This document shows, piece after piece, positions 10,853 through 64,000 of a DNA stretch of 64,000 nucleotides. This stretch comes from an uncultured Chloroflexia bacterium (GTDB lineage: Bacteria > Chloroflexota > Anaerolineae > Caldilineales > Caldilineaceae). Numbering within the stretch: the stretch's first letter is position 1; each line of letters opens with the position of its first letter. The translations under genes were made by a program, and so were the position numbers. Below the pieces are notes generated by a model. The model worked only from the letters and a program-made list of their open reading frames with translations. It was not told the DNA's origin and ran no database searches. The stretch lies in NCBI GenBank assembly GCA_963698255.1, contig CAVOQD010000024.1, positions 581,072-645,071 on the forward strand, in the 5' to 3' direction.

Positions 10853-11858
10853 GTCTTCTCCTGATAGATCGCCGGCATCTCCGGCTCGTCGACCGCCACG
10901 GCAACCCGCTGCGGGCCGACTGGATGCAGGCGTCCGCGATGATCATGGCGATGTAGCCGTCCCATGTCGACGGACCGGTTTGTTCCCCGGCGAGCAGACT
11001 GCGCACCCAGGCCGCCGCCTCTTCAATGTAGGCGATCTCAAAACGTTGCAGCCAGTCCTCCTCGATGGTCTGCGACAGCGCGCCGGATTGGCGCATCTGC
11101 ATCTCTTGCAGGCCGCCGACCGCCACCGATGCCTGTTCGCCGACCACTTCGACACGCACCTCGTAGCCGTAGCCTGCATCGGCGTTCAGCTCGATGATCG
11201 CCAACGCACCATGGTCGAAGGCCATCTCGATCACGGCCAGCCGGCAGGTGTCGGGCAGAGCCGGATCGGCGGGGATGGTGCGGGTGTAGACGCTGGTCAC
11301 TTGGCCGCCCAGCAGCCAGCGGGCCGAGTGGATGTCGTGGACCGCCGAGTTGATGATCACGTCGTCAACGGTGCGCAGCGTTTCGCCGCCCAGATTGGTG
11401 TGGGTGCCGCGAAAGTAGAGCGGCCTGCCCAGCCGCCCCGACTGCACAGCGTTGAAGATCTGTCGATGCGACGGGTCATACTCGCGCATGAATCCGAGCT
11501 GCACCAACCGCTTGCCTGCCGCCACCTCAGCCTTGACCACGCCTTCGGCCTCGGCGACGCTGGTCGCCAGCGGCTTCTCGCACAAGACCGGCTTGCCGGC
11601 GGCGATGCAGGCCGACGCCAGGCGAGCGTGGGTGCGATCCGGCGACGCAATCACCAGCGCGTCAACGTCCGGATCGGCAATCAGAGCGTCGGCGTCTGTG
11701 TAGATCTTGGCCCCGCCACATGTCGGCAGCAACGACCGCCGCCGTGTTCCGGCTCAACATCCATGATGCCCAACCACGCGTGCCCCCGGCGTCCGCAACG
11801 CCAGATTGCGCGCATGCCGTCCACCCATGCCGCCAGTCCCGATGATGCCAATCTTCAC
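10849..11858 (-). pseudogene. iolG: inositol 2-dehydrogenase, B. subtilis IolG type (Gfo/Idh/MocA); about 4 frame breaks
   Basis: The core is ORF 10833..11732(-), with GKPVLCEKPLA, GKRLVQLGFMREYD and GPSTWDGYIAMIIADACIQSA (compare Bsu IolG GKRLVQVGFMRRYD and GPTAWDGYIAAVTTDAC). The N-terminus VKIGIIGTGGMGGRHARNL starts at GTG 11858 and needs three +1 corrections near 11770-11715. The C-terminus VAVAVDEPEMPAIYQEKT* (stop 10849) needs one more near 10895. Confidence 0.75.
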
Positions 11859-29297: not shown

Positions 29298-31099
29298 ATG
29301 ACTGAGTCCAATCGCGACGGGCAGACGCCCAATCAGGCTGATACTCCGGAGGAAACTCCGCAGCCGATGACCGGTGCGCAGATGATCTGGGAAGCCTTTA
29401 CGCGTGAAGGGGTGAGTGTGGTCTTTGGGCATCCTGGCGGCGCGATTTTGCCCGCATACGATGCCCTGGCTAAGTATGAAGAAGAGGGCAAGATCCACCA
29501 CGTCCTGGTTCGCCACGAGCAGTGCGCCGGCCACATGGCCGACGGCTACGCTCGTGTTACCGGTGAAGTCGGCGCCTGTGTGGTCACCAGCGGACCGGCA
29601 GCCACCAATTTGATCACCGGCCTGGCGACTGCGCAGATGGACAGCGTGCCCATCGTCGCGATCACCGGCCAGGTGCCGACATCCCTGCTGGGCACCGACG
29701 CCTTTCAGGAGTCTGATGTCGTCGGCGTCTCCCAGCCCGTCTGCAAGCACAACTATTTGGTCACCGATGTCAACGAGCTGCCCATGATCCTCAAGGAGGC
29801 CTTCTACATTGCACGTGAAGGTCGGCCGGGACCGGTGCTGATCGACATCTGTAAGGATGTGCAGAACGCAACGGGCATGTTCCGCTACGACATGGAAGTC
29901 GATCTGCCCGGCTTCGAGCCGTGGCCTGAGGTCAGTGGATCGAAGGTCGCTGAAGCGGCCGCTCTGCTGAATGCCGCCGAACGACCGCTGATTTTGGCCG
30001 GCCACGGCATCAAGATCGCCGGCGTCAGTGCCGAATTGTTGGAACTGATCGAAAAGGCCGAGATCCCCGTCGTGACCACGCTATTGGGCACGGGCGACAT
30101 TCCTGAAGACCATCGGCTGAGTCTGGGCATGGGCGGCATGCACGGTGAGGCCTACGCCAACAAGGCGATCCAGAAATGTGACCTGCTGATTGCCATGGGC
30201 ATGCGCTTTGACGACCGCATCACCGGTGTTCTGGACCGTTTTGCCAAGCAGGCCAAGATTGTCCATTTCGAGCTGGATCGTGCCGAGGTCGGCAAGAATG
30301 TGACGCCGGATGTGGCCGTTGTCGGCGATCTGGCCGATTCTCTGCCGGCCCTGTTGCCGCTGGTTGAAGAGCGTCAGCACCCGGAGTGGGTCGCGTCGGT
30401 GGCCGAGTGGCGAGAAGATTCTGATCAGACAGACATCATCAACCAGGAAGTCGATGAACTGATCCCGCCCTACGTCATCCGCCAGCTTTGGCATGCCACC
30501 AAGGACGCCAAGGACGGAGCCATCATCGTCACCGATGTGGGCCAGCATCAGATGTGGGAGTCCCAGTACTACATCCACAGCCAAGCCGGTCAGTTGCTGA
30601 CCAGCGGCGGCCTGGGCACCATGGGCTATGCGCTGCCCGCGGCCATCGGCGCTCAGATGGCTCACCGGATCGAATGGTCTGGGCCGTGGCCGGCGACGGC
30701 GGCTTCCAGATGACCTTGCAGGAACTGGCCGTGCTCCAACAGGAGAAGTTGCCCGTCAAGATCGCCATCATCAACAATGGCTTCCTGGGCATGGTTCGCC
30801 AGTGGCAGGAGCTCTTCTTCGACAAGCGCTACACCGGCACGCCGATTCTCTCGCCCGACTTTGTCAAGCTGGCTGACGCCTACGGCATTCCGGGCTTGCT
30901 GGTGACCAAGCCGGACGAAGTCGCCGGCGCCTACGCGACAGCCATTGCAACCCCCGGACCTTTCCTGATCGAATTCCGGGTCCAGGAAGAGGTCAACGTC
31001 TTCCCCATGGTTGCGACTGGAGCCGCCGTCGACGAGATGATTCGCCGACCCAAGCCGGCTATCGTCCAGAGCTTCAGCGGCGTTGAGCCGCAGTTCTAA
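29298..31099 (+). pseudogene. ilvB: acetolactate synthase large subunit IlvB; 1 frame break (about 30665, CCC read as CC)
   Basis: ORF 29298..30713 ([33 protein letters not shown]...) and ORF 30488..31099 ([44 protein letters not shown]). The join at GCTCACCGGAT needs one extra C to read [10 protein letters not shown]. Confidence 0.9.
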
Positions 31100-31171
31100 C
31101 TTGAATGATTGGTGTAGCTCAGATCTTTAGCGGATCGAACGCTTTCATGCATGTGAAAAAGGAAAAGACCC

Positions 31172-31741
31172 ATGAAACATACACTTGTCGCCTGGATGCG
31201 TGACAAACCCGGCGTGTTGAACCGGATTGCCGGCATGCTGCGCCGGCGCAATTTCAACATCGACAGCCTGCAGGTTGGCCACAGCGAGACGCCCGGCATC
31301 AGCCGCATGACCTTTGTGGTTGACGGCAACGATCACATGGTCGATCAGGTCATCGAGCAACTGCGCAAGGTTGTGGACGTGACCCGTGTCGAAGATATCA
31401 CTGACCGACCCAGTGTCGCGCGTGAGTTGGCCCTGATCCGAGTGACCACCACGCCCGAAACCCGTTCCGAGATCGTGCAGATGGTCAACATCTATCGCGG
31501 CGAGATCGTCGACGTCGCCATGGACAGCATGGTCGTCCAGATCGTCGGCGCTGAGGATCGAGTCGGGTCGCTCATCGAGTTGCTGGACAACTTCGGCATC
31601 CGCGAGATGGTCCGCACCGGTCGGGTCGCCCTGGTGCGCGGCAGCGCCCAGCGCGTCTCTCGCCGCTCAACCGCAGTCTGGCGTGCCCGCTCCAATGGCG
31701 CAGCCGATCTCAAGGAACGCGAGAGCACCGGCGGCGTTTAG
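31172..31741 (+). CDS. ilvN: acetolactate synthase small (regulatory) subunit
   Basis: 189-aa ORF. The ACT domain [48 protein letters not shown] is present. The basic C-terminal tail may hide a late frame error. Confidence 0.85.
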
Positions 31742-31763
31742 TAGCGTGGACGTCTATACAATT

Positions 31764-31850
31764 CACCGCGGATTTACCGGATCCATCGGATGACCGCGGA
31801 TTTACAAAGAAAATCCGCGGTCATCCGTTTCATCCGCGTAATCCGCGGTA
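31764..31850. repeat. intergenic repeat, 'CCGCGGAT' family (copy 3) with perfect 16-bp core hairpin
   Basis: GGATGACCGCGGATTT (31788-31803), loop ACAAAGA, AAATCCGCGGTCATCC (31811-31826), flanked by further ACCGCGGATTT/ATCCGCGGT words. Confidence 0.8.
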
Positions 31851-31928
31851 AATATTCATCAGTCATCAATACCTATTCAGACCCGAAATCGAGTTCACAG
31901 TTCACACAAAGAGGAACCACACGAAATC

Positions 31929-32930
31929 ATGGCAACGATCTACTACGAAAACAGCGCAGACCTGGCTCAGATCAAGGACAAGAAGATTGCAATCATCGGC
32001 TACGGCAGCCAGGGCCATGCCCATGCCCTGAATCTGACCGACAGCGGCATGGATGTCCGCATCGGCCTGCGTGAGGGCAGCGCCAGCTGGGCCAAGGCCG
32101 AAGCCGCAGGCCTGCGCGTCCTGAGCAATGCCGATGCCGCGGCCGAAGCCGACATCATCATGGTGCTGGCGCCGGATCCGGTCCAGGGCCAGGTCTTCGA
32201 AAACGATATTGCACCGACCCTCAAGGCCGGCGACACGCTGATGTTCGCCCACGGCTTCAACATCCGCTACGGCTTCATTCAGGTTCCTGAAAATGTAGAC
32301 GTCTCCATGATTGCGCCCAAGGCCCCGGGCCATCGCGTACGCGAGGTCTTCACCGAAGGCAGCGGCGTTCCCGGCCTGGTCGCCATCCATCAGGACGCCA
32401 GCGGCAATGCCTTGGCCAACGCCCTGGCCTACGGCAAGGGCATCGGCTGCACCCGCGCCGGCATCATCGAGACGACCTTCACGGAAGAGACCGAGACCGA
32501 TCTCTTCGGCGAGCAGGCCGTGCTCTGCGGCGGCACCAGCGAACTGGTCAAGGCCGCTTTCAACACGCTGGTCGAGGCCGGCTACCAGCCCGAGATCGCC
32601 TACTTCGAGTGTCTGCACGAACTCAAGCTGATCGTCGATCTGATGTACCAGGGCGGTCTGAGCTACATGCGCTACAGCGTCAGCGACACGGCCGAGTGGG
32701 GCGACTACAAGAGCGGCCCGCGCATCGTCACCGACGAGACCCGCGCCGCCATGAAGCAGATCCTGGCCGAGATCCAGTCCGGCGCCTTCGCCGAAGAGTG
32801 GATGGACGAATACCACGCCGGATCCAAGGAACTGACGGCCACCCGCACTGCCGAACAAGATCAGCAACTTGAGACTGTCGGCAAGCAACTGCGCGGCATG
32901 ATGGATTTCTTGGACGCGAAAGAGGTTTAG
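31929..32930 (+). CDS. ilvC: ketol-acid reductoisomerase (class I)
   Basis: Uninterrupted 333-aa ORF with [25 protein letters not shown] and [11 protein letters not shown]. Confidence 0.95.
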
Positions 32931-32937
32931 GGCTACT

Positions 32938-32995
32938 GCGTGCTGCGCTTGCCCTGAGCTTGTCGAAGGGCAAGCGCAGCACGCAACAGTTTTTT
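32938..32995 (+). terminator. 17-bp perfect hairpin + T6 after ilvC ('GAGCTTGTCGAAGGG' family loop)
   Basis: GCGTGCTGCGCTTGCCC (32938-32954), loop TGAGCTTGTCGAA, GGGCAAGCGCAGCACGC (32968-32984), then AACAG and TTTTTT (32990-32995). Confidence 0.65.
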
Positions 32996-33117
32996 CACAG
33001 GAAGGGGGGTGATGCGTATGGACGACGGCCTTAGTGACCTTGGCGATCTGTGTAGAGGACAGGAATTTCGACCGGCAACCAATCCATTGAACGATCAGCC
33101 CCTGGAAGGAACCAGAG

Positions 33118-34898
33118 ATGAGCACCAGAAACGGCGATGTATCCAATTCCGCCACCGGCAGTGACGAATCTGACGTAGACATTTCGGATGTAGATGTATC
33201 CCAGTTTGAAATTGACGACATTCGCGCCTATGCGCGCGAGATCGCCCATGGCAACACGGTGGTGATCTTCGACACCACGCTGCGCGATGGCGAGCAGAGC
33301 CCCGGCGCCACGCTCAACACCCAGGAAAAACTGGATATTGCCGCCCAACTTGCCCGTTTGGGTGTGGACATTATGGAAGCGGGTTTCCCGGCTGCCAGCC
33401 CCGGCGATCTGGATGCAGTGCGACAGATTGCCAACACGGTCGGCAGATCGCCGCGCGAGGGCAAGGACGGCGAGGTCGTGGCGCCGCCGATTATTGCCGG
33501 CTTGGCACGCGCCAACAAGGCCGACATCGACAAGGCGTGGGAGGCGGTGCAGGGCGCTGTGCGACCGCGTATTCATACCTTCATCGCCACCAGCGACATC
33601 CACATGGAGCACAAGCTGCGCATGTCGCGAGACGAGGTGCTGGAGACTGTGGGCGACACAGTCCAATATGCGGCCAGCCTGTGCAACGATGTCGAATTCA
33701 GCCCCGAAGACGCCGGGCGCAGCGATCCCGAGTATCTGGTGCGCGTGCTCTCTGTGGCCATTCAGGCCGGCGCAACCACGCTGAACATCCCGGACACTGT
33801 CGGCTATACCACGCCTGAGGAATATGGCGAGCTGATCCGCTACTCTGCGCGAAAATGTGCCCGGCGGCAAAGATGTGATCTTCAGCGTTCACTGTCACAA
33901 CGATCTGGGGTTGGCGACGGCCAATACGCTGGCCGGTGTGCAGAACGGCGCCCGCCAGATGGAAGTCACCCTGAACGGGATTGGCGAACGCGCCGGCAAC
34001 ACCAGCCTGGAAGAGGCGGCCATGGCCATCCAGGTGCGCGAGCCGATCTACCAACTGCAAACCAACATTGTGTCGCACTGAAATCCACCGTACCAGCGAC
34101 ATGGTCAGCCGCTACACCGGCATGGTCATTCAGCCCAACAAGGCCATCGTCGGGGCCAATGCTTTTGCACACGAGGCCGGCATCCACCAGGACGGCATGC
34201 TCAAGAACAAGCGCACCTACGAGATCATGGATGCGTCGACCATCGGCTTGAACCAGAGCCGATTGGTGCTGGGCAAGCACAGCGGACGCGCCGCGCTCAA
34301 CCGCAAGCTGGAGGGCATGGGCTTCCGGCTGAACAAGGATGAATTGAAAGAAGTGTTCATCCGCTTCAAAGATCTGGCTGACAAGAAGAAGACCGTGACC
34401 GACGCCGATCTGGAAGCGTTGGTCGGCGACGAAATCTACCAGCCCGAAGAGACCTGGGAACTGGTCAACGTGCAGGTCCAGTGTGGAACCGGGCTCATAC
34501 CGACCGCCGTTGTGACTGTGCACAATCGCGAGACCGGTGAGACCAAGACGGATGCCGGATTCGGCACAGGGCCGGTCGACGCCGTCTATCAGGGCATCAA
34601 CCGGGTCGTGGGCGTTCGAAACAATTTGGTCGAGTTTCTCGTACAGGCAGTGACAGAGGGTATCGATGCCACTGGTGACGTGACGATTCGCATCGAGGTT
34701 CCCGCCGGCAGCATCGGCTTCACCGAGACTGCCCAAGGACGCCCGCGTCGACGGCTGTTCAGCGGCCGCGGTGTGGACACCGATATCATTGTCGCCTGCG
34801 CCAAGGCCCATATGCAGGCGCTGAACAAGGCGCTGGCAGCCGAAAAGGGCGAGAGTTCAGCCGTCAATATCGCGGCCGATGCACCTGTGGCGACCTAG
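33118..34898 (+). pseudogene. leuA: 2-isopropylmalate synthase LeuA; 2 frame breaks (about 33845, 34078)
   Basis: ORFs 33118..34251 ([19 protein letters not shown]...), 33857..34081 ([45 protein letters not shown]) and 33981..34898 ([18 protein letters not shown] plus the LeuA dimerisation/regulatory domain). It has an acidic N-terminal extension of about 45 aa. Confidence 0.9.
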
Positions 34899-34921
34899 CT
34901 TTCCGATCGTTCCGGAGGAAA

Positions 34922-34967
34922 CTCCGGTCTGCGGACGGTCAAGTCGTCTGCAGACCGGAGTTTTTTT
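34922..34967 (+). terminator. intrinsic terminator after leuA
   Basis: CTCCGGTCTGC (34922-34932), 17-nt loop, GCAGACCGGAG (34950-34960), then TTTTTTT (34961-34967). Confidence 0.75.
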
Positions 34968-36923
34968 GTGGAAAATGCTGATCGTCTGAAGGAACAGATT
35001 TTTGGTCGGTGGCCTGCCGTTGTTCTTGTCATCGTGATTGTGCTCAGCACTGTGCTCTATCCTCAAGACAACGGCGCTCTCGGCCCCGCTCGTTCAAGAC
35101 ACCGACGCTGGTGTCCCAGCGGGCACTGTCGACTTAGGAGGCAGTGATTTCGCGGCCTGTGATCAGTTGACCGAGGAAGATCTGCGTGCTGAACTCAACC
35201 AACTTGCGCAAGGTGTCTTCGCGCAAGAGGACAGCGGCGTCGACGCAATCGACCTTGACGCCATTGTCGAACGCCAATGGCAGTTGCTGGACATGGATGC
35301 GGTCATCGATTCCGCTGTCGATGACGCCGTTGCCGTGCTCAAGCGCGACGACGATCTCTGGAACACGTTTCTATCGGGGTGGTCGCCGGCCAAGGCCGAG
35401 GATCTGGCTCAGGCCGTGGCCGTGGCCGCATTCGGCTCGGAGACCTTCCGACTGGCGCTGGATGACCTGTCGACGGGCATTGCTGCCGACCTGGAAGTCG
35501 AGATCGCTGCGCTGTCGGCCGAGTCCGTCTCGTCCAACCTCATCTGTCTGCAACAGTTCATCGAACGCAATTATTCGGGCATCGTCGTCGAAGCCTTTCG
35601 GCAGGGCATCAGCGAGGGCGCAGGCGATCTCGAAATCTGCCGCCGGCGACAATCTCGACAGCGGCATTCTGACCGTGCTCGATACCCACAAGACAGCGCT
35701 GGGCGGCGTCGGCGTGATCATCGCGGCCCAGTTGTCGCGCAAGATCGTCGCCCGCATCGGCAAAGGCCGTCTCCAAGCGGGTCGCCGGCCGGCTGGCCGG
35801 ACGTCTGCTGGGCCGGGCCGGGGCCACCATCATCCCGCTGGCCGGCTGGATCGTGGGCGGCGGGTTGATCGTCTATGACGTGCTGGACAGCCTTGATGGC
35901 GCGCTGCCCCAGATCCAGGAATCGCTGCAGTCGCCGGACGCCAAACTGCTGGTGCGAGACGAAATCGTCAGCAGCCTCGAACCGGAGCTTCAGCGCGAAC
36001 TGCCCCAGATCGCGCGTGACGTTGCCAATGATCTCTACGCAGAGTGGCTGGATTTCAAGCGCCAGTACCGGCAGGTTCTGGCGCTTGTCGGAAGAGCGTC
36101 CTGACTTCGAGGCGCTGATCGCCGAGAGCGGCGATCTGGCCAAGGTTGCCGCCACTGCTGGATGTGAGCCTGTCTGTGCTTGGCCCCGACGGCGTGGACG
36201 ACGCCATCGACAGCGGCCTCTTTGCCCGCTTGCTCGCCTTGCCCGGAAGGCGCGGTCGATATTCTGCGCGATACCGGCTCGCCTGAGACCGTGCTGGCAT
36301 GGAGCGAGTTGGCCGGTTCGGCGCTCGACCAAGTCGTCGCCCTGGATCTGCACAAGCTGGCCTCGCCGGACGATCTGGACGCGGCGACGCTCGACTCGTT
36401 GCTGGCCGTCGGCGATCCCGGCAATGGTGGCCAAGCTCGTGCAGGTGCAACCGGCTTCGTTGGCTTCCCTGTTCACGCTCTCTTCCGCCGGCCTCAGCGA
36501 TTTGGCTGGTCCAGATGAGTCCGTCGGAGCTGGACGCGCTGGGCCAATTGTTGGATGGTCTGGAGCCGGAGCGGCGCAATCAACTGGTGCTGGCGCTGCT
36601 CAACAATCCCAACGCCATGGACATCATCGTGCGCGAGGGCGCGGGTCGGGCGATCCTGGCCAGCCGTGACCTGCCGGCCGCCATCGCCTTTCTGGACACG
36701 CCTGCGGACGGCTACAGCATCGTGACGGACGGTATCAGCGTGGCCAATGGGTCGGTCTCGTTGCGTCTCTTCGGTCGAAAAGTACGGCGGCATGACCACG
36801 CTGCTGATCGTGCTGGTTCCACTGCTGCTGGCCGCCGGGATCGTCTATTCGATGGTGAGCCTGATGGCTCGACCGTTGGTCGGGGTTTACAATCTTCTGT
36901 TTGGACGGCGTAGGCCACGCTAG
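34968..36923 (+). pseudogene. uncharacterised large acidic membrane-anchored protein, paralogue A (about 650 codons; about 9 frame breaks)
   Basis: Reconstructed from ORFs 35038..35868, 35186..35878, 35853..36104, 35875..36669, 36180..36518 and 36299..36913. The GTG 34968 N-terminus is VENADRLKEQIFGRWPAVVLVIVIVLSTVLY and the C-terminus is YGGMTTLLIVLVPLLLAAGIVYSMV...GRRRPR* (TAG 36921-36923). It is collinear with paralogue B. I recognise no known domain. Confidence 0.5.
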
Positions 36924-37065
36924 ACGGTAGCCCGTCAGCGTGAGCGTAGCGTACCTGAAGTTGTAGCACGGCATTCATGCCGCACCATCGTTTGGAGACC
37001 CTGAATGCAGACATACGACGTTGACTCGGCCGAAGATCCGCAAGGCCCTGGGCAAGGCGCTCTTG

Positions 37066-37371
37066 ATGAGCCTGGACACACTGCCCGAACCAGATATCGA
37101 GGTCGGCGACTTTGTGGTCGTGGTCGTGGTCAAGGCGGCCAATGTGGTGCGCGATATCCGTGAGAACATTCGCAATCTCGTCGGCGGCCGCATGAAACAT
37201 TACGAGAAACTGATCGAGGATGCGGTCGAAGAGGCCGTGTCCGAACTCGGGCAGAAGGCGCAGAAGCGTGGATACGACGGCGTGGTCGGCCTCAAGATCT
37301 CGCACCCCATGGTGGTGGACGGCAGCGTCGAGGTCGTCGTCTATGGGAATGGGTTCAAGCGCGTGCGATAG
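37066..37371 (+). CDS. ybjQ: YbjQ/UPF0145 (DUF74) family protein
   Basis: ORF 37021..37371 with ATG at 37066. [59 protein letters not shown] aligns with E. coli YbjQ [55 protein letters not shown] (from memory). Confidence 0.7.
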
Positions 37372-37465
37372 GGAATTTGTACCTCGACGTACGAGATTCA
37401 GTCGGAGGCATGCTGCCGGTGCGCTTCGACATAAATGTCGGTGCAGGGTCGCTGTAAGGTCCAAG

Positions 37466-39300
37466 ATGTCGTTACGGAAACTAGCTCGAAAACCCAGGTC
37501 TTCACATGCGCCTCGCCGACATCTGCCGACGGGATCGTTCTTGGCGTTGATGGCGTTCTTGCTGACAGTCTCTTCGATCCTTCTACCCGTCACCGACTCT
37601 GGCCCAGGACTACACCTATGGCGAATGCAACACTGTCGAACCGGAGGCGCTGGCGGCGGAGATCGAGGGGCTGGCTCGAACCGTACTGGTAGACGGCCAG
37701 GGACTTCTCAACATCGACGCCATTGTCTGATCGGCAGTGGATCGCCGTGGGCATGGACGCTACATTGGATCAGGCGGTGGAGTCGGCGGTACAGGCGTTG
37801 ATGGCCGAAGAGCCGTACTGGGCGCGCTTCCTGTCGGGCTGGTCCGGCGCCAAGGCCGAAGAATTCGCCGCAGCGATCACGCAGCGGGTCTTCTCTTCGC
37901 CGCAATTCGTGGCCAAGCTGGACGAACTGGCCGCCGCCATCGCCGATGATGTGACGGTTGAACTGGAATCGATGGCGGCTCGTTCGGCATCCACATCGTT
38001 GCTCTGCCTACAGCAGTATGTCGGTGAACGCTATTCGGAGAGCCTGTTGACCCTCTTCGAGACGGAGATCCGCACCGATATCGAGGTCGCCGATCTGAAT
38101 GCGTCCCCGGACGATTTGGATGTCTCCCAGTTGACGACCCACGGCAAGGCTGCCACGGGCATTAGCGTCATCATCGCCACCCAGGTCGTGCGCCGCATCA
38201 GCGTACAGTTAGGCAAGAAAGTCGCCGGTCGCGTGGCAGGACGAATCGTGGGCCGGGTGCTGGGCAAGCTCGGATCGTCGCTGATTCCGCTGGCCGGTTG
38301 GGTGGTCGGGGGCGGCCTGATTGTGTGGGATCTGGTCGAGGGCGGGCAAGGCTCGCTTCCGCAGATAGAAGAGTCGCTGAAGGACGAAGAGGTGAAGGTC
38401 GCGCTACGCGCTGAGATCGCAGCCGCGGTCGAATCAGGGCTGGATGATGAGGTCGATCTGATGGCCGCGCAGATCGCCGATGAACTGATGGGCGAGTGGA
38501 ATCAATTCTGCCAACGGCATCCAACCCTGTGCTCGCTGCCCGAAGAGAGTGCTCAATTTCAGGCGATTCTTGACGCTACATCCGTCGAGGATCTGGACAA
38601 GCTTGCCGGATTGGTCGACATCTTCATCGCCGACCTGGGGCGCCCCCGACTGGATATTTCGCTGGAGAACGGCGATTTTGAAGCACTATTACAGCTTTCA
38701 GAGCAGGCTTATGCGATCCTGCTGGAGACGGGATCAACCGAAACGGCGCTGGCGTGGGCGGATCTGGCCGGCGGCAACGTCGATGAGGTGGTCCGACTCG
38801 GACTCTTTCAGTTGATGGAGCCGTCCATGACGGATGAAGCTGAGGTCAGTGCATTGATTGGCCTGGCTGACAAGGAGACGATCTCGCACTACTTCACAAC
38901 GACGCCGGAAACACGCAACGCGCTGCTGACGTACTCGCCTACCACGCGCAAGGGGCTGCTTGAGCGTCTCGATCCGGCCGACATCGACTGGTTGATCACA
39001 TACATGGCAGCAGAAAACGTCGCCGACGCTGAGTCGATGGCCTATCGGATCGCCAACGGGATTGAGACGGTCGCCATGTTGCAAAGCCCGCCGGTCGCGA
39101 CCAAGCAAGGCCCGTCCAAAATTGCCGCAGCCGGCCTTTCCCTGCCCGAGGCGGTGCTGGTGCTGGAACCGGATTCCAGACCGGATGCCAGTCCACGGCA
39201 GAACAGTGTGCTCGTGGCCGCGATGCTACTAAGTGTCGTTTTGGCAATATCTGCATTTGCACTGGTAGGCTGGAATGTTGTAAAACGTAGTCAGCATTAA
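37466..39300 (+). pseudogene. uncharacterised large acidic membrane-anchored protein, paralogue B (about 610 codons; 2 frame breaks near the 5' end, about 37600 and 37720)
   Basis: The clean 525-aa ORF 37723..39300 ends in the TM helix VLVAAMLLSVVLAISAFALVGW. Comparison with A extends it upstream through YTYGECNTVEPEALAAEIEGLARTVLVDGQGLLNIDAIV (another frame) to MSLRKLARKP...FLALMAFLLTVSSILLP (ATG 37466). I recognise no known domain. Confidence 0.5.
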
Positions 39301-39468
39301 TGGTTCGTAATTCATTTTGAGCAACGCGATGGAATAAATCGTTCATTCGTGCCAGGGAGGGAACTACCGCCCCTGGCATTTGCTTACCTTCGACGTGGAA
39401 GGACTTGGTCGTAGCCGACTGCTCCACCCTAACGCGCTGCCCCATGTTCGACAGAGAGGAGTACCACG

Positions 39469-44154
<4,686 letters not shown>

Positions 44155-44160
44155 CCAAGA

Positions 44161-44246
44161 GAATGAACAAAGATCGAAGAACAAAGAACGAGGGTTGACG
44201 CGTCCATCAGCGCACTTCCGACTTTCGATCTTTGTTCTTCGATTTC
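44161..44246. repeat. inverted-repeat hairpin element, 'GAACAAAGATCGAAGA' family (copy 3)
   Basis: Left arm GAATGAACAAAGATCGAAGAACAAAGAACGAG (44161-44192), right arm CTTTCGATCTTTGTTCTTCGATTTC (44222-44246). Confidence 0.8.
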
Positions 44247-44276
44247 CAGCAATAATACCTGTATTTGAGGACAATC

Positions 44277-45772
44277 ATGGGCAAACCTACCGGATTTATG
44301 GAATATGAACGCGAACTGCCGGCGGATCGAGATCCGCTGGAACGCGTCGGGGATCGGAATGAGTTCCATCTCCACATGGCCGACGAGAAACTGCAAAAAC
44401 AGGGCGCTCGCTGTATGGACTGCGGGATTCCTTTCTGCCACACCGGCACGTTGATCGCCGGGATGGCCTCGGGCTGTCCGGTCAACAACCTCATCCCGGA
44501 GTGGAACGATCTGATCTACAACGGGCTCTGGCGCGAGGCGCTGGATCGTCTGCATTCGACCAATAACTTTCCCGAGTTCACCGGACGCGTCTGTCCGGCC
44601 CCGTGTGAAGGTTCGTGTACCGTCGGGCTCAGCGATCTGCCGGTCACCATCAAGAATATCGAATGCACGATCATCGACAAGGGTTTTGAGAACAACTGGG
44701 TCGTGGCCAATCCGCCCAAGGCGCGCACCGGCAAGACGGTCGCCGTGGTCGGTTCCGGCCCGGCTGGCCTGGCCTGTGCGGACCAGCTCAACAAAGCCGG
44801 CCACAGCGTGACCGTCTACGAACGGGCCGACCGCATCGGCGGACTGCTCATGTACGGCATTCCCAACATGAAACTGGACAAGGCCGTTGTGCAGCGTCGC
44901 ATCGATCTGATGGCGGCCGAGGGCGTCAGTTTCGTCACCGGCATCGAGATCGGCGTCGACATGCCGACGGCCAAGCTGACGCGCGAGAATGATGCCGTCG
45001 TCCTCTGCGGCGGCGCCACCAAACCGCGCGATCTGCCGGTCGAGGGTCGCGATCTCAAGGGCGTTCACTTCGCCATGGACTTCCTGCGCGACAACACAAA
45101 ATATCTGCTCGATGCCCAGGAAGGCTATCTGACCAAGCGGACAGCTTCCGGCCGAAGGGCTGGACGTCATCGTCATCGGCGGCGGCGACACCGGCACCGA
45201 CTGTGTGGGTACGTCGTTGCGCCAGGGCGCCAACAGCGTGATCCAGTTCGAGATTCTGCCCGAGCCGCCGCTGGAGCGGCCGGCCGACAATCCGTGGCCC
45301 GAGTGGCCCAAGGTGCTGCGTGTCGACTATGGCCAGGAAGAGGCCATCGCCATTCAGGGCAAGGACCCGCGCAACTATCTCATCATGACCAAGAAGATGG
45401 TCGGCGACGAGCATGGCCATGTCAAGGAACTGCACACGGTGGAGATCGAGTGGGTCTTCTCGGACAACGGCGGACGACCCTTCCCCAAGGAGATTCCCGG
45501 TACCGAAAAGGTCTGGCCGGCGCAGCTTGGTGCTGCTGGCCATGGGCTTCCTGGGACCGGAAGAGACCATGGCCGAGCAGTTGGGCCTGGAACTGGACCC
45601 GCGCTCGAACTTCAAGGCCGAACACGGCAAGTTCGCCACCAGCGTCGAAGGCGTCTTCGCCGCCGGCGACATGCGCCGTGGCCAGAGCCTGGTTGTGTGG
45701 GCGATCAACGAGGGCCGCGGAGCGGCGAGAGAGTGTGATCGCTACTTGATGGGGGAAACCAGCCTGCCGTAG
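44277..45772 (+). pseudogene. gltD: glutamate synthase small subunit GltD; 2 frame breaks (about 45149, 45520)
   Basis: [13 protein letters not shown] (ATG 44277, GAGGA upstream), Fe-S cysteines CMDCGIPFC and [23 protein letters not shown] (ORF 44265..45749), [16 protein letters not shown]... (45205..45738), and [23 protein letters not shown] (45413..45772). Confidence 0.9.
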
Positions 45773-45824
45773 GACGTGATTGGCACGATAGTACGGTCTC
45801 ATCGTCAGGCTCGACTACGTCGAT

Positions 45825-45895
45825 AATGAGATGTGGTCTCATTACAATTTGTACGCCCGCACTAATTGAGATACAATCTCAACTGGTGCGGGCGT
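45825..45895 (+). promoter_or_regulatory. two palindromes upstream of the metal-binding-protein gene (metalloregulator operator candidates and/or gltD terminator)
   Basis: AATGAGA-tgtgg-TCTCATT (45825-45843) and TTGAGAT-aca-ATCTCAA (45866-45882). The second is nested inside the GC stem ACGCCCGCAC (45853-62)/GTGCGGGCGT (45886-95). Confidence 0.35.
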
Positions 45896-45975
45896 TCTGT
45901 TATGCCTCACAAATTATCCATTTTCACGGGCGGCGCAACCGGTCGTCCACCAATCGTCTACAGGAAAGATCATAC

Positions 45976-46996
45976 ATGAGCTTCAGCCGAATTGCGTTCA
46001 TCTTGCTAGCAGTTCCTGCTTGCCGCCGCATGCACTGCTCCGGCGACAGACAGCGCCGACACATCCGGGACAGACCATGCTGAGCATCAACAGAGCGATG
46101 TCTTGCCGCAGTTGGAACCGCAGCCGCTCGATGCGAACGAACGCCTGCGCGTGGTCGCCTCAACCAACATCTTGGCCGACGTGGTCGCCCAAATCGGCGG
46201 CGATGCCATTGACCTGACAGCACTGATGCCGCCAGGCGTCGATCCTCACGGATTCGAGCCAACGCCGCAAGACCGCATCGCACTCGAAAAGGCGCATGTG
46301 GTCTTTGTTAACGGCCTTGGATTGGAGGAGTCCATGTTGTCCGTGCTGGAATCGTCAGATGGAAGCGGTGTGATTGTCCCGGTGAACACGGGCTTTGCAG
46401 TGCTTGAGCTTGATAATGAGACCGATCACGAGGATCATGCTGACGAGGATCATGGTCACGAGCATGGGAGCGACGATCCGCACACCTGGTTCAGCGTCCA
46501 TGCTGTGGAACAGTGGGTCGAGAATGTCGAACATGTCTTGAGCGAATTGGATCCGGAAAACGCGGAGACATACGCGGCCAATGCCGAAGGGTATCGAAGC
46601 GAGTTGGAAAACCTGGAGGGTGAACTGGCAGCGATGGTGGCGGAGTTGCTGCCGGAGCAGCGCAAGATGGTCACCGACCATGATTCATTCGGTTACTTCG
46701 CCGACGAATACGACTTTCAGATCATTGGCACGGTCATGCCCTCGTTGAGCACGATGGCCTCGCCGTCAGCGGCACAGTTGGCTCAACTGCACGATCAGAT
46801 TGAGGCGCAGGCCATCAAGGCGATCTTCGTGGGCACAACCGTCAACCCGGATGTGGCGCAATCCATCGCCGGCGACACAGGCGCCCAGATCGTCATGCTC
46901 TACACCGGCTCTCTCAGCGATGCCGACGGACCGGCGGACAGCTATCTCGATTTCATGCGATACAATGTTAGGGCGATCGTTGAAGCACTGAAGTGA
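45976..46996 (+). pseudogene. znuA: ZnuA/TroA-family metal (Zn/Mn) ABC transporter substrate-binding lipoprotein; 1 frame break (about 46030)
   Basis: The signal/lipobox MSFSRIAFILLAVPAC starts at ATG 45976 in one frame. The mature part is in ORF 46103..46996, with the His/Asp/Glu-rich loop ETDHEDHADEDHGHEHGSDDPHTW typical of ZnuA. Confidence 0.75.
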
Positions 46997-47148
46997 AGTT
47001 TCTGACAAGATGACGGGGTGGCGAGGCGAATCGTTCCCCAGCGTGAAATGCACCCGTGCAATCATACACCATTTCTCCAGCCTGTAGAAACAATGTATGA
47101 TAAAAGCATAAGCTTACGTGTAATGTTTTTCCATGAAGGATCAAGCGG

Positions 47149-50100
47149 ATGATGAATCGAACTATGCCATGTCCCGAGACGGCGGGCGAAAAGGCTCGCA
47201 CCACGTTCGCCGAACTCGCACAACATGGCCTCTACGATCCGCGCTTCGAGCACGACGCCTGCGGCATCGGCTTTGTGGCCCATGTCGATGGGCGGCGCAA
47301 CCATCGCGTGCTCCAGATGGCGCTGGAGGCGCTCTGCAACCACGCACATCGCGGCGCTGTGGCCGACGACCGCAAGTCCGGCGACGGCGCCGGTGTGCTC
47401 ACTCAACTGCCCTATGAGTTTTTCAATCGTGAGCTGCGGCGCATGGGCATCGAGCCGCCCCATGCCGCCGATCTGGCCGTCGGCCAGCTCTTTCTCAATC
47501 TGCACAACGGCGCTGACCGTGCGATTGCGCGTGAGATCATCCGCGAGGTTCTCGACCGAACTCAAGCTGGAGGTGTTGACTTTCCGCTCGGTGCCCGTCA
47601 TCGAAGCGGCGCTGGGCCGTCGGGCGGAACAGAGCCGGCCCTGGATGGAACAGGTGCTGATCCGGCGAACGGAAGCGGCTTGCGAGGCCGGCGACGCCTT
47701 CGAGCGGCTGCTCTATCTGGCCCGCAAGAAGATTGCCCGCCGCGCCAGCGAGGGCGGTGTCCATCGGCTCTACGTCGCCAGCATGAGCAGCCGGACCATC
47801 GTCTACAAAGGCTTGGTACTGGCCGAGGAACTGGCGCACTTCTATCCGGATCTGAGCGATCCCGATTTCAAGACTGCCATCGCCGTCTTCCACCAGCGCT
47901 ACAGCACCAACACCTTCCCGACCTGGGAACGGGCGCAACCGTTTCGCATCATCTGCCACAACGGCGAGATCAACACGGTGCAGGGCAATGTCAACTGGAT
48001 GAGCGCACGCGAGGATGATCTGGCCAGTCCGCTCTGGGGCGACGCTATCCACGAATTGAAGCCCGATCATCGGCGTCCACGGCAGCGATAGTTCCAAACT
48101 GGACAATCAGCTTGAACTGCTGACCCGCAGCGGCCGCGACGTGCGCCATGCATTGATGATGATGGTCCCCGAAGCCTGGGAGCGGCTCTCCGAGCGCGAG
48201 GTGACGCCCGAACGGCGCGCCTTCTACCAATATCACAGCGCCCTGGTCGAGCCGTGGGACGGACCGGCGGCCATCACCTACACCGACGGTCGTTTCGTCG
48301 GCACCATTCTGGATCGCAACGGCCTGCGCCCGGCGCGCTACGTGGTGCTCGACAACGGCTATGTGATCAGTTCCAGCGAGGTCGGGGCTGTCGCCTATGA
48401 CGAAGCCCGCGTGGTCAAGAAGGGCAGCCTGGGACCCGGCCAGATCTTCTGTGTCGACACCGGCCGCGGCATGATCATGGAAGACGAGGAGATCACCCAG
48501 CATTTCGCCAGTCGCCAGCCCTATGACCGCTGGGTCCAGCAGAATCTGATCGATCTGGACGCGCTGGTGCGTGAGAGCGTGGAGACGGTGAGCTGCCCGT
48601 TCTCCGCCAATCGGCATCCGTGCCGTCTGACCGCGTCGCCAGGCCTCCTTCGGCTACACCAGCGAGGAGATGGTCGTGGTGCTGCGGCCCATGGTGACCG
48701 AGGGCAAGGAGCCGGTCGGCGCCATGGGCGACGACACCCCGGCCGCCGCGCTGAGCAAACTGCCGCGTCCGCTCTTTCACTACTTCAAGCAACGCTTTGC
48801 CGAGGTGACCAACCCGCCCATCGACCCGCTGCGCGAAGCGATGGTGATGAGCACGCGTACGCTGCTGGGCGGACGGGCCAATCTGCTCTCCGAAAGCCCG
48901 GAGGCCACTCGCTTGATCAAGCTGCAATCGCCGCTGCTCCTGCCGGAACAGATGGCGGCATTGATGGCGCTCCAACAGCCGGAGTTCGAGCTCGCGGTCG
49001 TCGATGCCACCTGGTCGCTGCCGGAAGGAGTCTCGACTGCTGAGGATGGCTCTGCGGCGGCTGAACCGGACGAAACTGCCGGCGCAGCGCTGCGTGCCGG
49101 TGTCGAGCGGCTCTGTGCGGCGGCCGAGGATGCGGTGCGCAGACGGCGCCACCCTGCTGGTCATCAGCGATGCACGCGCCGAGGGACAGTTGCTGCCGAT
49201 CCCGTCGCTGCTGGCGGTCGGCGCGGTGCATCACCATCTGATCGCACAGGGCTTGCGCATGCAGGCCAGCCTGATCTGCGCCTCGGGCGAGCCGCGCGAG
49301 GTGCACCACTTTGCGGCCCTGGTCGGCTACGGCGCCAACGCCGTCTATCCCTACCTCGTCTATGCCACAACCGACGAGCAGGCGGCCGAGGATCGGCGCA
49401 TGGCCGATTTTACGGCGGCCCAACTGCGCGTCAACTTCGCCAGTGCGGTCGAAGGCGGGCTGCTCAAGATCATGAGCAAGATGGGCATCAGCACCATCGA
49501 CAGCTATTGCGGCGGACAGATCTTCGAGGCTCTCGGCATCGGCCCTGAGCTGCTCGATGTCGCTTTCCGCGGCACGCCCAGCCTGATCGGCGGCGTCGGC
49601 TTTGCCAGCGTGGCCGAGGATGTGCTTGCCTGGCACGCCTACGGCTATCCCGATTCAGACAGTGACGGCGCAGAGGTCAAGCTCAAGACGTGGGGCCTGT
49701 ACAAGTCGCGTCGCGGGGGCGAACTGCATACGTGGAGTCCTGAGGTGGTGCATGCGCTCACCGACGTGGCCCGCGCCGAGAGCGACGTGCTGGCCCGCGA
49801 AAAGTACACGGTCTACGCCGATCTGGTCGACAACATGCGCATTGCGCCGCGCAATCTGTTGGATTTTCGCCCGACACGACCGCCGGTGCCCATCGAGCAA
49901 GTCGAATCGGTCGAACGCATTGTGACACGCTTCAGCACCGCGGCCATGAGCCTCGGCGCGCTGAGTTCGGAGGCCCACGAGACATTGGCCATCGCCATGA
50001 ACCGGCTGGGCGGCAGGAGCAACAGCGGCGAGGGCGGCGAGGCCAAGGATCGCTACTTCACCGAGCGCGCCTCCAAGATCAAGCAGGTGGCGTCCGGCCG

Positions 50101-51763
50101 CTTCGGCGTCACGCCGGAGTATCTGATGAGCGCCGAGGAGATCCAGATCAAGATGGCGCAAGGCTCCAAGCCGGGCGAGGGCGGCCAGCTTCCCGGCCAC
50201 AAGGTGTCGGCCGAGATTGCGATCCTGCGCCACAGCACGCCCGGCGTGGCGCTGATCAGCCCGCCGCCCCACCATGACATCTACAGCATCGAGGATCTGG
50301 CGCAACTGATCTTCGACCTCAAGACCATCAACCCCAACGCCAGAGTCAGCGTCAAACTGGTCTCGGAGATGGGCGTGGGCACGGTTGCGGCCGGCGTGGT
50401 CAAAGGCTTTGCCGACATCGTGCACCTGAGCGGCGGCTCCGGCGGCACCGGGGCCAGCCCGCTGAGCAGCGTCAAGAACGCGGGCCTGCCCTGGGAGATC
50501 GGCCTGGCCGAGATCCACCAGACGCTGCTGGCCAACGGGCTGCGCACCCACGTCACGCTGCGCGCCGACGGCGGTCTGGCCACCGGCCGCGATGTGGTTT
50601 TGGCCGCCATGCTCGGCGCGGACGAGTTCAGCTTCGGCACCAGCGCCATGATCGCAGAGGGCTGTATCATGGCCCGGGTCTGTCACAAGAACACCTGCCC
50701 GGTTGGGGTCGCCACCCAGCGTGAGGATCTGCGGGCCAAGTTCGACGGCACGCCTGAGATGGTGATCCGGTTCTTGACCAACGTTGCCGAGGGCGTGCGC
50801 CGGATACTGGCCGAACTGGGCTTCCGCAGCCTCGACCAGATCGTCGGCCACCCGGAGTTGCTGGAGCAGGTGATCTTCGGCCGTGAGGCCGGCTTCATGG
50901 ACCTGTCGCCGTTGCTCTACGTGCCGGACACCGGCAGCGCGCGGCGCAATGTGCTGCCGACCAACGAGGTCATCGCCAACCCGACCGTGGGCGACCGCAT
51001 CGTCGAGCAGGTGTTGGCATCCTTGCAGGCCAATCCGGAGGCGCCGGTTCGCCTGGCCCATCCGATCCGCAACATTGAGCGCTCGGTCGGCACGCGTCTC
51101 TCCGGCCAACTGGCCCTGCGCTACGGCGACGACGGTCTGTCCGACGGCCACGTCGATATCACCTTCACAGGGAGCGGCGGCCAGAGCTTCGGCGCCTTCG
51201 GCATCCGTGGCCTGCGCCTGACCATCATGGGCGAGGCCAACGACTATGTGGGCAAGGGCCTGGGCGGCGCCGAGATCGTCATCCGCCCCGACGAAGAGGC
51301 GCGCTTCGTGCCCCACCAGAACACGATCATCGGCAACACGGCGCTCTACGGCGCGACCAGCGGCCGGCTCTTTGCGGCCGGCCTGGCCGGGGCCCGCTTT
51401 GCCGTGCGCAACAGCGGCGCTACGGCCGTGGTCGAGGGTGTGGGCGAGCACGCTTGCGAGTACATGACGGGCGGAACCGTCGTCGTGCTCGGCGGAACGG
51501 GGCGCAATTTCGGGGCCGGCATGACCGGCGGCGAAGCCTTCGTCTACGATGTGGATGGAAAGTTTGAGCAGCGCTACAACACCGAGTTGATCGACATCCG
51601 GCGACTGGGCGGACTGGAATACGAGGAGCGTCTGCGTGACCTGATCGCCGAGCACATGGGCAAGACCGGTTCCCCGCGAGCCGGGTTGATCCTCGACGAC
51701 TGGGAGGTGCAGCGCCAGTTCTTCTGGCATGTGGCCCCGCGCGCAGAACGTCGTGGCGATTGA
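47149..51763 (+). pseudogene. gltB: glutamate synthase (GOGAT) large subunit, copy 2; 4 frame breaks (about 47560, 48065, 48620, 49140)
   Basis: FEHDACGIGFV is in ORF 47149..48018. Further pieces are in 47225..48091, 48141..49043 and 48670..49548, followed by the clean 919-aa ORF 49004..51763 ([44 protein letters not shown] domain). It is full-length and clearly diverged from copy 1. Confidence 0.9.
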
Positions 51764-62319: not shown

Positions 62320-62398
62320 CTGCTGTGTGCCGCTTGCTGCGTGAAAGGGCTTGGCACGCGTTTCACGCGAGCAAGCAGCACGCAGCACGCAGCAGTTT
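62319..62398 (+). terminator. long GC-rich hairpin after the HAD gene (repeat-like, weak T-tract)
   Basis: GCTGCTGTGTGCCGCTTGCTGCGTGAAA ... TTTCACGCGAGCAAGCAGCACGCAGCACGCAGC followed by AGTTTTC, 16 nt before the cimA ATG. Confidence 0.5.
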
Positions 62399-62413
62399 TC
62401 AGAAAGGCAAACC

Positions 62414-64000
<1,587 letters not shown>

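Follow-up and report, generated by a model that had tools for sequence, protein, structure and literature searches.

A conserved pairing of YbjQ with an undescribed family of large membrane proteins in Caldilineales and cyanobacterial-type loci

What is the role of three plus-strand genes that stand between leuA and gltB, two genes of amino-acid metabolism, in an uncultured Chloroflexia bacterium? The window analyzed here is a 64-kb stretch of contig CAVOQD010000024.1. The listing of open reading frames (ORFs) and direct reading place leuA at 33118–34898 on the plus strand and gltB, the first gene 3′ of the module, from about 39469. The leuA terminator and gltB enclose gene A (the upstream paralogue, 34968–36923), ybjQ (UPF0145, Pfam YbjQ_1, 37005–37371), and gene B (the downstream paralogue, 37466–39300), all on the plus strand, as an earlier note on this DNA had described. 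We refer to the undescribed family of large membrane proteins comprising A, B, and their homologues as FAM. The module is conserved, but the conserved core is not three genes; it consists of one large FAM protein plus YbjQ and is found in at least two phyla.

In the raw sequence, the pieces of gene A are spread across three frames. They join into 648 codons once nine single-base insertions are deleted, in line with the earlier estimate of about 650 codons and about nine frame breaks. Gene B contains the clean 525-aa ORF at 37723–39300 reported before, and the repaired ORF, with the inserted bases 37590 and 37727 deleted, starts at ATG 37466 and encodes 610 aa. A tblastn comparison of B with the A region gave collinear matches with E-values of 2e-33 and 2e-27 at 35–42% identity; the similarity is far above chance, and A and B are paralogues, as had been proposed. 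The in-frame part of the middle gene (37066–37371) matches Pfam YbjQ_1 over 37066–37368 with an E-value of 2e-18 and 67.3 bits (cut-off 23), covering profile positions 8–98 of 103, and it matches the NCBIfam UPF0145 models at E-values of 7e-13 to 2e-9, under their equivalog cut-offs. The family assignment of this gene is thus upheld, whereas the length of 101 aa given earlier is only that of the in-frame part. Deletion of the inserted base 37037 yields 121 aa from the probable start ATG 37005, the same length as that encoded in relatives, and the window protein is 98% identical to that of relative L006. Since YbjQ has no signal peptide, it is presumed to be cytoplasmic.

The number of breaks in gene A raises the question of whether the gene is intact. 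Relative L006, whose DNA is ~90% identical and was aligned to window positions 29990–47035, served as the reference. Every break in the aligned region is a +1 base: nine in A (35065, 35637, 35765, 36084, 36154, 36245, 36416, 36507, and 36775), two in B, and one in ybjQ. leuA has two and gltB three, and others follow downstream; examples outside the module are 33844, 34076, 39860, 41212, 42896, 45144, and 45529, in leuA, gltB, gltD, and other genes. The extra bases are of mixed kinds, most lie outside homopolymer runs, and they look like residual long-read insertion errors. Deleting the insertions gives uninterrupted ORFs of 648 (A), 610 (B), and 121 aa (YbjQ) with zero internal stops. Since the neighboring genes carry the same +1 error type and no stops are left after removal, we read the breaks as assembly noise, and gene A is probably intact in the source genome. 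The ratio of non-synonymous to synonymous substitution rates (dN/dS) for gene A is 0.13 in the comparison with L006 and 0.14 with L001; against L006, YbjQ has 0.03, leuA 0.04, and B 0.26. Since its dN/dS is 0.13, lower than that of B, gene A is not decaying but under purifying selection. The gene is also intact in L001, L003, and ~30 other genomes. One observation weighs against assembly noise and would favor a decaying duplicate that leaves only YbjQ and B functional here: gene A has ~4.6 breaks/kb (nine in 1.95 kb) against ~0.9/kb in the flanks (14 in ~15 kb), a Poisson estimate of p ~1e-4, and we have no explanation for this excess. Given the uniform error type, the stop-free repaired frame, and the intact copies elsewhere, we regard a pseudogene as quite improbable.

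How far does the module extend beyond this genome? A search with the gene B ORF returned ~125 homologues of 575–730 aa, unnamed or labeled ‘hypothetical’ and without Pfam domains, whose named sources were only Caldilineaceae or Chloroflexi. Searched in full with a profile, 1.84 billion cluster representatives yielded 572 clusters at E ≤ 0.001, and cluster name look-ups for FAM returned ‘hypothetical protein’ only. We collected gene neighborhoods from search-derived loci and 44 species-level genomes, annotated with custom hidden Markov models (HMMs) and BLAST; the 44-genome scan used a Caldilineales-specific peptide pattern and is biased to that order. In every Caldilineales locus with enough flank, FAM adjoins ybjQ. 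The A–ybjQ–B arrangement is present in ~30 species-level Caldilineales genomes, in all of which A is the upstream and B the downstream gene, and ~10 Caldilineales loci have one large gene and ybjQ only. In a distance tree, the upstream copies form one clade and the downstream copies another with mirrored branching, and the single-copy versions are sisters of the upstream clade. Since the two clades mirror each other, the tree points to one old duplication, a fixed gene order, and vertical co-inheritance. L002 (8001–11884), L035, and L036 form a separate FAM clade of 724–737 aa with a Pro-rich C-terminal tail; there, the large gene and ybjQ are followed by an efflux-type transporter of the major facilitator superfamily (MFS), away from the ilv–leu cluster.

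The YbjQ search led beyond CALDILINEALES to a second phylum. YbjQ matches were 61–98% identical, and the few with a named source came from Caldilineaceae/Chloroflexota and cyanobacteria, including Litorilinea aerophila, Anabaena, Pleurocapsa, and cyanobacterial metagenome-assembled genomes (MAGs); between Chloroflexota and cyanobacteria, this YbjQ subgroup is 61–70% identical. In all five extra YbjQ contexts inspected, FAM adjoins ybjQ: a protein without a recorded Pfam match is encoded directly upstream, and four of these five proteins have 604–621 aa. Three of the loci (L051, L053, and L054; low-GC, cyanobacterial-type) gave a full-length match to the Caldilineales FAM-HMM at E-values of ~1e-153 to 1e-155; the source of L053 is a MAG named as a cyanobacterium. 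The overlap of FAM with ybjQ is 4 nt in L051 and 11 nt in L054, and in L003 ybjQ overlaps B. L055 has the Caldilineales-type order leuA–DinB–RidA–FAM–YbjQ–FAM–gltB. A tblastn search of plasmids with the cyanobacterial FAM homologue gave no match.

Two observations concern individual cyanobacterial-type loci. In L052 (3346–4996; Anabaena sp. CS-542/02, GCA_028331085.1), another of the five contexts, FAM is split into ORFs of 133 and 402 aa, with most of its first ectodomain (D1) gone, including the second conserved cysteine; a deletion that arose naturally, a pseudogene, or a faulty assembly could each explain this. After the pair in L051 (6429–7187) and L053 (6485–7255) come an opposite-strand rpiA, a gene for an SLH-domain protein of the envelope-anchoring type, and dxs; the link of the SLH protein to the pair rests on two related genomes.

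Does the location of the module indicate a role in amino-acid metabolism? Most Caldilineales modules sit after leuA and before gltB or follow gltBD, co-oriented with these genes and separated from them by short gaps, and the leuA/gltB placement spans genera that are only ~40–46% identical in B. These data would suit a sensor, exporter, or regulator of branched-chain amino acid or glutamate metabolism. On the other hand, several Caldilineales loci (L015, L017, L018, L022, L024, L025, L002, and L035) and all cyanobacterial-type loci have unrelated neighbors, which in Caldilineales include LacI, an FAD oxidoreductase, a glycosyltransferase, and an MFS pump. Rfam searches of the 64-kb window and 12 related loci detected no riboswitch or leader and no other family, a strong terminator parts leuA from gene A in this genome, and FAM, with only three predicted transmembrane helices, carries neither a transporter nor a sensor domain. 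Since the neighbors other than ybjQ vary, we reject a dedicated role in amino-acid biosynthesis, and a sensor, exporter, or regulator serving these pathways is improbable. Since the FAM–YbjQ pair also occurs in cyanobacterial-type loci with unrelated neighbors, the leuA/gltB setting is a lineage habit of Caldilineales and not part of the system. Nor was the module ‘inserted’ between leuA and gltB, as had been supposed; this arrangement is ancestral in many Caldilineales.

The boundary between leuA and gene A has a peculiar structure, already described from the letters and present as described. A terminator scan found an intrinsic terminator of leuA at 34919–34967 on the plus strand, with a 20-bp stem (34919–34963) followed by a T7 tract; the hairpin folds at −50.2 kcal/mol (z −8.7). 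The GGAG Shine-Dalgarno of gene A, at 34957–34960, lies inside the 3′ arm of the terminator, and the GTG start of gene A (34968) comes right after the T7 tract. In L006 and L001, the terminator hairpin is retained via compensatory changes and an ATG follows the T7 tract, and L033 has a similar T7–GTG arrangement that arose independently. In this lineage, it is plausible from these features that gene A relies on terminator read-through and that its ribosome-binding site is occluded. Since many other loci are without the feature, it is not a general property of the module.

What, then, is the large protein? A and B share one predicted layout. In A, a signal-peptide-like N-terminus (34968–35085) is followed by D1 (35086–35647, Cys codons at 35158 and 35545), a putative first transmembrane helix (TM1, 35693–35737), a basic Arg/Gly-zipper loop (35738–35822), a second helix (TM2, 35823–35885), the second ectodomain (D2, 35898–36751), a C-terminal transmembrane helix (36792–36866), and a basic tail (36867–36920). 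The corresponding plus-strand segments of B are the predicted signal peptide (37466–37604), D1 (37605–38109, Cys codons at 37626 and 38005), TM1 (38149–38190), the basic Arg/Gly-zipper loop (38191–38274), TM2 (38275–38337), D2 (38350–39093), the C-terminal helix (39205–39273), and the tail (39274–39297). This domain layout agrees with the earlier description except at the N-terminus, which had been taken for a signal anchor. FAM N-termini have a positive n-region, an h-region, and an AxA followed by Q, and are probably cleavable Sec signal peptides. D1 contains exactly two cysteines in 83 of 83 aligned sequences, both invariant. The central segment comprises a 14–15-residue hydrophobic stretch, a 28-residue basic G-x3-G ladder, and a 21-residue Gly-rich helix that ends in an invariant Asp and is followed by an invariant G..LPxI motif. 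TM2 and the segment right after it (G..LPxI) are the parts best conserved between the phyla. In all 86 sequences, 15 residues are invariant, including Arg278, Pro289, Gly292, Gly296, and Asp303 (numbering of family member P0003). The C-terminal hydrophobic helix with its basic tail is found family-wide, with Kyte-Doolittle values of 2.6–2.8 over 19 residues.

The mean net charge in FAM is −17 for D1, +4.5 for the loop, −19 for D2, and +2.5 for the tail. From these regional charges and the cysteine pair of D1, we infer that D1 is outside, that TM1 leads to a cytoplasmic loop, that TM2 returns to an outer D2, and that a third helix (TM3) places the tail inside. Several features weigh against this topology. 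The signal-peptidase site of gene A is poor, with a Pro near +1. TM1 is short, with ~14–15 hydrophobic residues; an alternative for the central segment is a hairpin that is re-entrant or surface-lying on the outer face, and the basic helix would then be outside and remote from YbjQ. The cyanobacterial homologues are far less acidic, with isoelectric points of 5.3–5.9, and the charge arguments are therefore lineage-dependent. The earlier suggestion of an undescribed envelope-associated system thus holds as to an undescribed family, whereas ‘envelope-associated’ derives from the predicted topology.

FAM is an undescribed family in every library searched (Pfam, NCBIfam, PHROGs, PADLOC, and PDB), consistent with the earlier impression that A and B belong to no characterized family. 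For A, B, and FAM representatives, the best Pfam E-values were 0.001–0.1, far under the cut-offs and inconsistent among members, and the NCBIfam scan gave no match. The PADLOC scan had a lowest E-value of 0.009 and no usable match for FAM, and PHROGs gave an E-value of 0.0095 for one FAM member only and no family match. Searching PDB sequences with the 83-sequence profile gave a best E-value of 0.12, which is noise, and among 5.8 billion proteins, a profile restricted to the membrane hairpin found only six fragments, all FAM. AlphaFold2 with the 83-sequence alignment predicted an all-helical structure for P0003, which is 90% identical to B, with a predicted local distance difference test score (pLDDT) of 83.2 and a predicted template modeling score (pTM) of 0.69; for D2 alone, the values were 91.7 and 0.78. 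Foldseek returned nothing at E ≤ 0.001 for the full model and D2 against PDB or for the full model against BFVD. The lowest E-values, none significant, were 0.06 for the full model against PDB (TM-score 0.12–0.15), 0.35 for D2 alone against PDB (TM-score ≤0.25), and 0.055 for the full model against BFVD, where tape-measure proteins appeared at E ≥ 0.23. The top Foldseek matches, at TM-scores of 0.1–0.25, were TAL effectors, designed helical repeats, bacterial dynamin-like protein (BDLP), and tape-measure proteins. A bacterial dynamin-like protein was rejected: Pfam finds no GTPase domain, and BDLP and SynDLP were listed at a Foldseek probability of 0.08–0.12 only.

The length of FAM varies by duplication of D2. 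This region (HMM positions ~332–530, ~200 aa) is present in 2–9 tandem copies in P0121 to P0131, between TM2 and the C-terminal anchor. These long relatives include P0121 (2212 aa), P0122 and P0123 (~1415 aa), and P0124 to P0126 (~1030 aa); in P0198, a ~75-aa sub-unit is repeated four times. With hhalign, neither D1 against D2 nor D2 against itself gave an internal repeat or relationship. Length variation by module repeats is typical of structural surface proteins, and arrays that would be membrane-anchored at both ends, together with the strongly acidic Caldilineales ectodomains, fit helical struts of adjustable length, or a coat, on the outside of the cytoplasmic membrane, with YbjQ co-expressed but not stoichiometric. 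However, conservation is highest not in the ectodomains but in the membrane hairpin and the residues right behind it, and ybjQ is adjacent at every inspected locus, with the overlaps in L003, L051, and L054, which argues for a stoichiometric partnership. We consider struts or a coat an unlikely but appreciable possibility.

We propose instead that the module is a conserved, self-contained operon whose FAM and YbjQ core forms an oligomeric membrane complex docking cytoplasmic YbjQ, and we judge the chances of this proposal to be about evenly balanced. The large gene would have been duplicated once, long ago, in most Caldilineales, giving the fixed A–ybjQ–B order. The large protein would be exported via its Sec-type signal peptide, placing a helical D1, held by the cysteine pair, outside the cell membrane. 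A helical hairpin may then dip through the membrane with its Arg-rich GxxxG loop facing the cytoplasm, followed by D2 outside and by the C-terminal transmembrane helix with its basic tail. The glycine-zipper hairpins may join A and B in a hetero-oligomer (in single-copy lineages, a homo-oligomer), and the basic cytoplasmic loops and tails could dock a mildly acidic YbjQ oligomer (median net charge of YbjQ, −4). We infer that such a complex would couple something at the outer membrane face to the cytoplasm, perhaps in transport or signaling, with the invariant Arg, Pro, Gly-x3-Gly, and Asp making the hairpin its working core. In a more specific version, which we hold to be distinctly unlikely, FAM and YbjQ would make a novel type of oligomeric membrane machine: the glycine-zipper hairpins, carrying the invariant Arg and Asp, would form a ring that acts as a gated conduit or transmembrane transducer, capped on the cytoplasmic side by a YbjQ pentamer and with an outer reach set by the number of D2 modules.

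The specific version, if true, would provide the first functional context for UPF0145/YbjQ, and a transducer or conduit would be a new cell-envelope component in Chloroflexota and cyanobacteria. Otherwise, the module joins the conserved hypothetical operons, with its limits now well defined and the ground prepared for a family model. YbjQ is a widespread small protein, and the adjacent FAM gives it a concrete candidate partner and a predicted cellular location: one YbjQ subgroup is always encoded beside a ~600-aa membrane protein, often overlapping, across two phyla. FAM itself combines an all-helical architecture, predicted with confidence and lacking solved relatives, with an ectodomain module that grows from one copy to nine.

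Several other features of the window were recorded. It contains two genes for the glutamate-synthase large subunit, at 39469–44100 and 47218–51742; the first is 43–54% and the second 68–79% identical to the gltB of L003. gltD and a ZnuA-like gene lie between the two copies, and in L001, too, a second gltB follows gltD. At 62393–63805 lies another, distant LeuA-like gene of the HMGL-like type, 29% identical to LeuA and possibly a citramalate or homocitrate synthase-type paralogue. A tRNA-Arg (GCG) at 11754–11835 on the minus strand is the only tRNA, and Rfam has no family at threshold anywhere in the 64 kb.

Among known systems, the ClyA-superfamily toxins (YaxAB/XaxAB and AhlABC) are likewise encoded as neighboring all-helical paralogues that share a central hydrophobic hairpin, which is Gly-rich in FAM. 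This likeness, and weak Foldseek matches to the AhlB pore and to tape-measure proteins (E ≥ 0.2), would suit an alpha-helical pore-forming toxin of two components or a helical protein of phage origin. FAM differs from the toxins by its signal peptide, its YbjQ partner, and its housekeeping context. The AhlB pore chain ranked 43rd (E 2.1, Foldseek probability 0.06), Pfam toxin families had no match in A, B, or FAM representatives, and the C-terminal membrane helix is conserved in FAM, in contrast to a soluble secreted form without a permanent anchor. The best PDB E-value, 0.06, came with TM-scores of 0.12–0.15, BFVD E-values were ≥0.05, and PHROGs and PADLOC gave no usable match. The operon is also vertically inherited in the core genome, without phage neighbors. 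A toxin or phage origin is accordingly very improbable indeed. A phage tape-measure or other phage protein was also rejected as a direct identification, with no PHROGs match, non-significant BFVD matches, and ilv, leu, and glt genes as neighbors.

Helical-repeat (solenoid) proteins such as TAL effectors and designed repeats are, like D2, stacks of short helices. D2 differs in that the matches had E ≥ 0.06 and TM-scores ≤0.25, in being free of repeats by hhalign, and in being predicted to be extracytoplasmic and membrane-tethered. A closer likeness in motif is that to glycine zippers, the GxxxGxxxG motif of small oligomeric membrane proteins and channels. The FAM loop and TM2 carry a similar G-x3-G ladder (... 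GWVVGGG) with the invariant Gly292 and Gly296, whereas the FAM ladder is interleaved with Arg/Lys and stands between two large helical ectodomains. Pfam Gly-zipper models gave no match at E ≤ 1 for the B ORF or at E ≤ 0.1 for eight full-length representatives, and we regard the resemblance as a likeness of motif, not homology.

The firmest relationship is that of the middle gene, a clear member of YbjQ/UPF0145/DUF74 (PF01906), with ~100–120 aa. Solved structures of this family show a homopentameric assembly with a dodecin-like fold. We know of no established function for the family, and the literature searched gave none for YbjQ, UPF0145, DUF74, or PF01906; an obligatory pairing with a ~600-aa membrane protein was likewise absent from the literature found.

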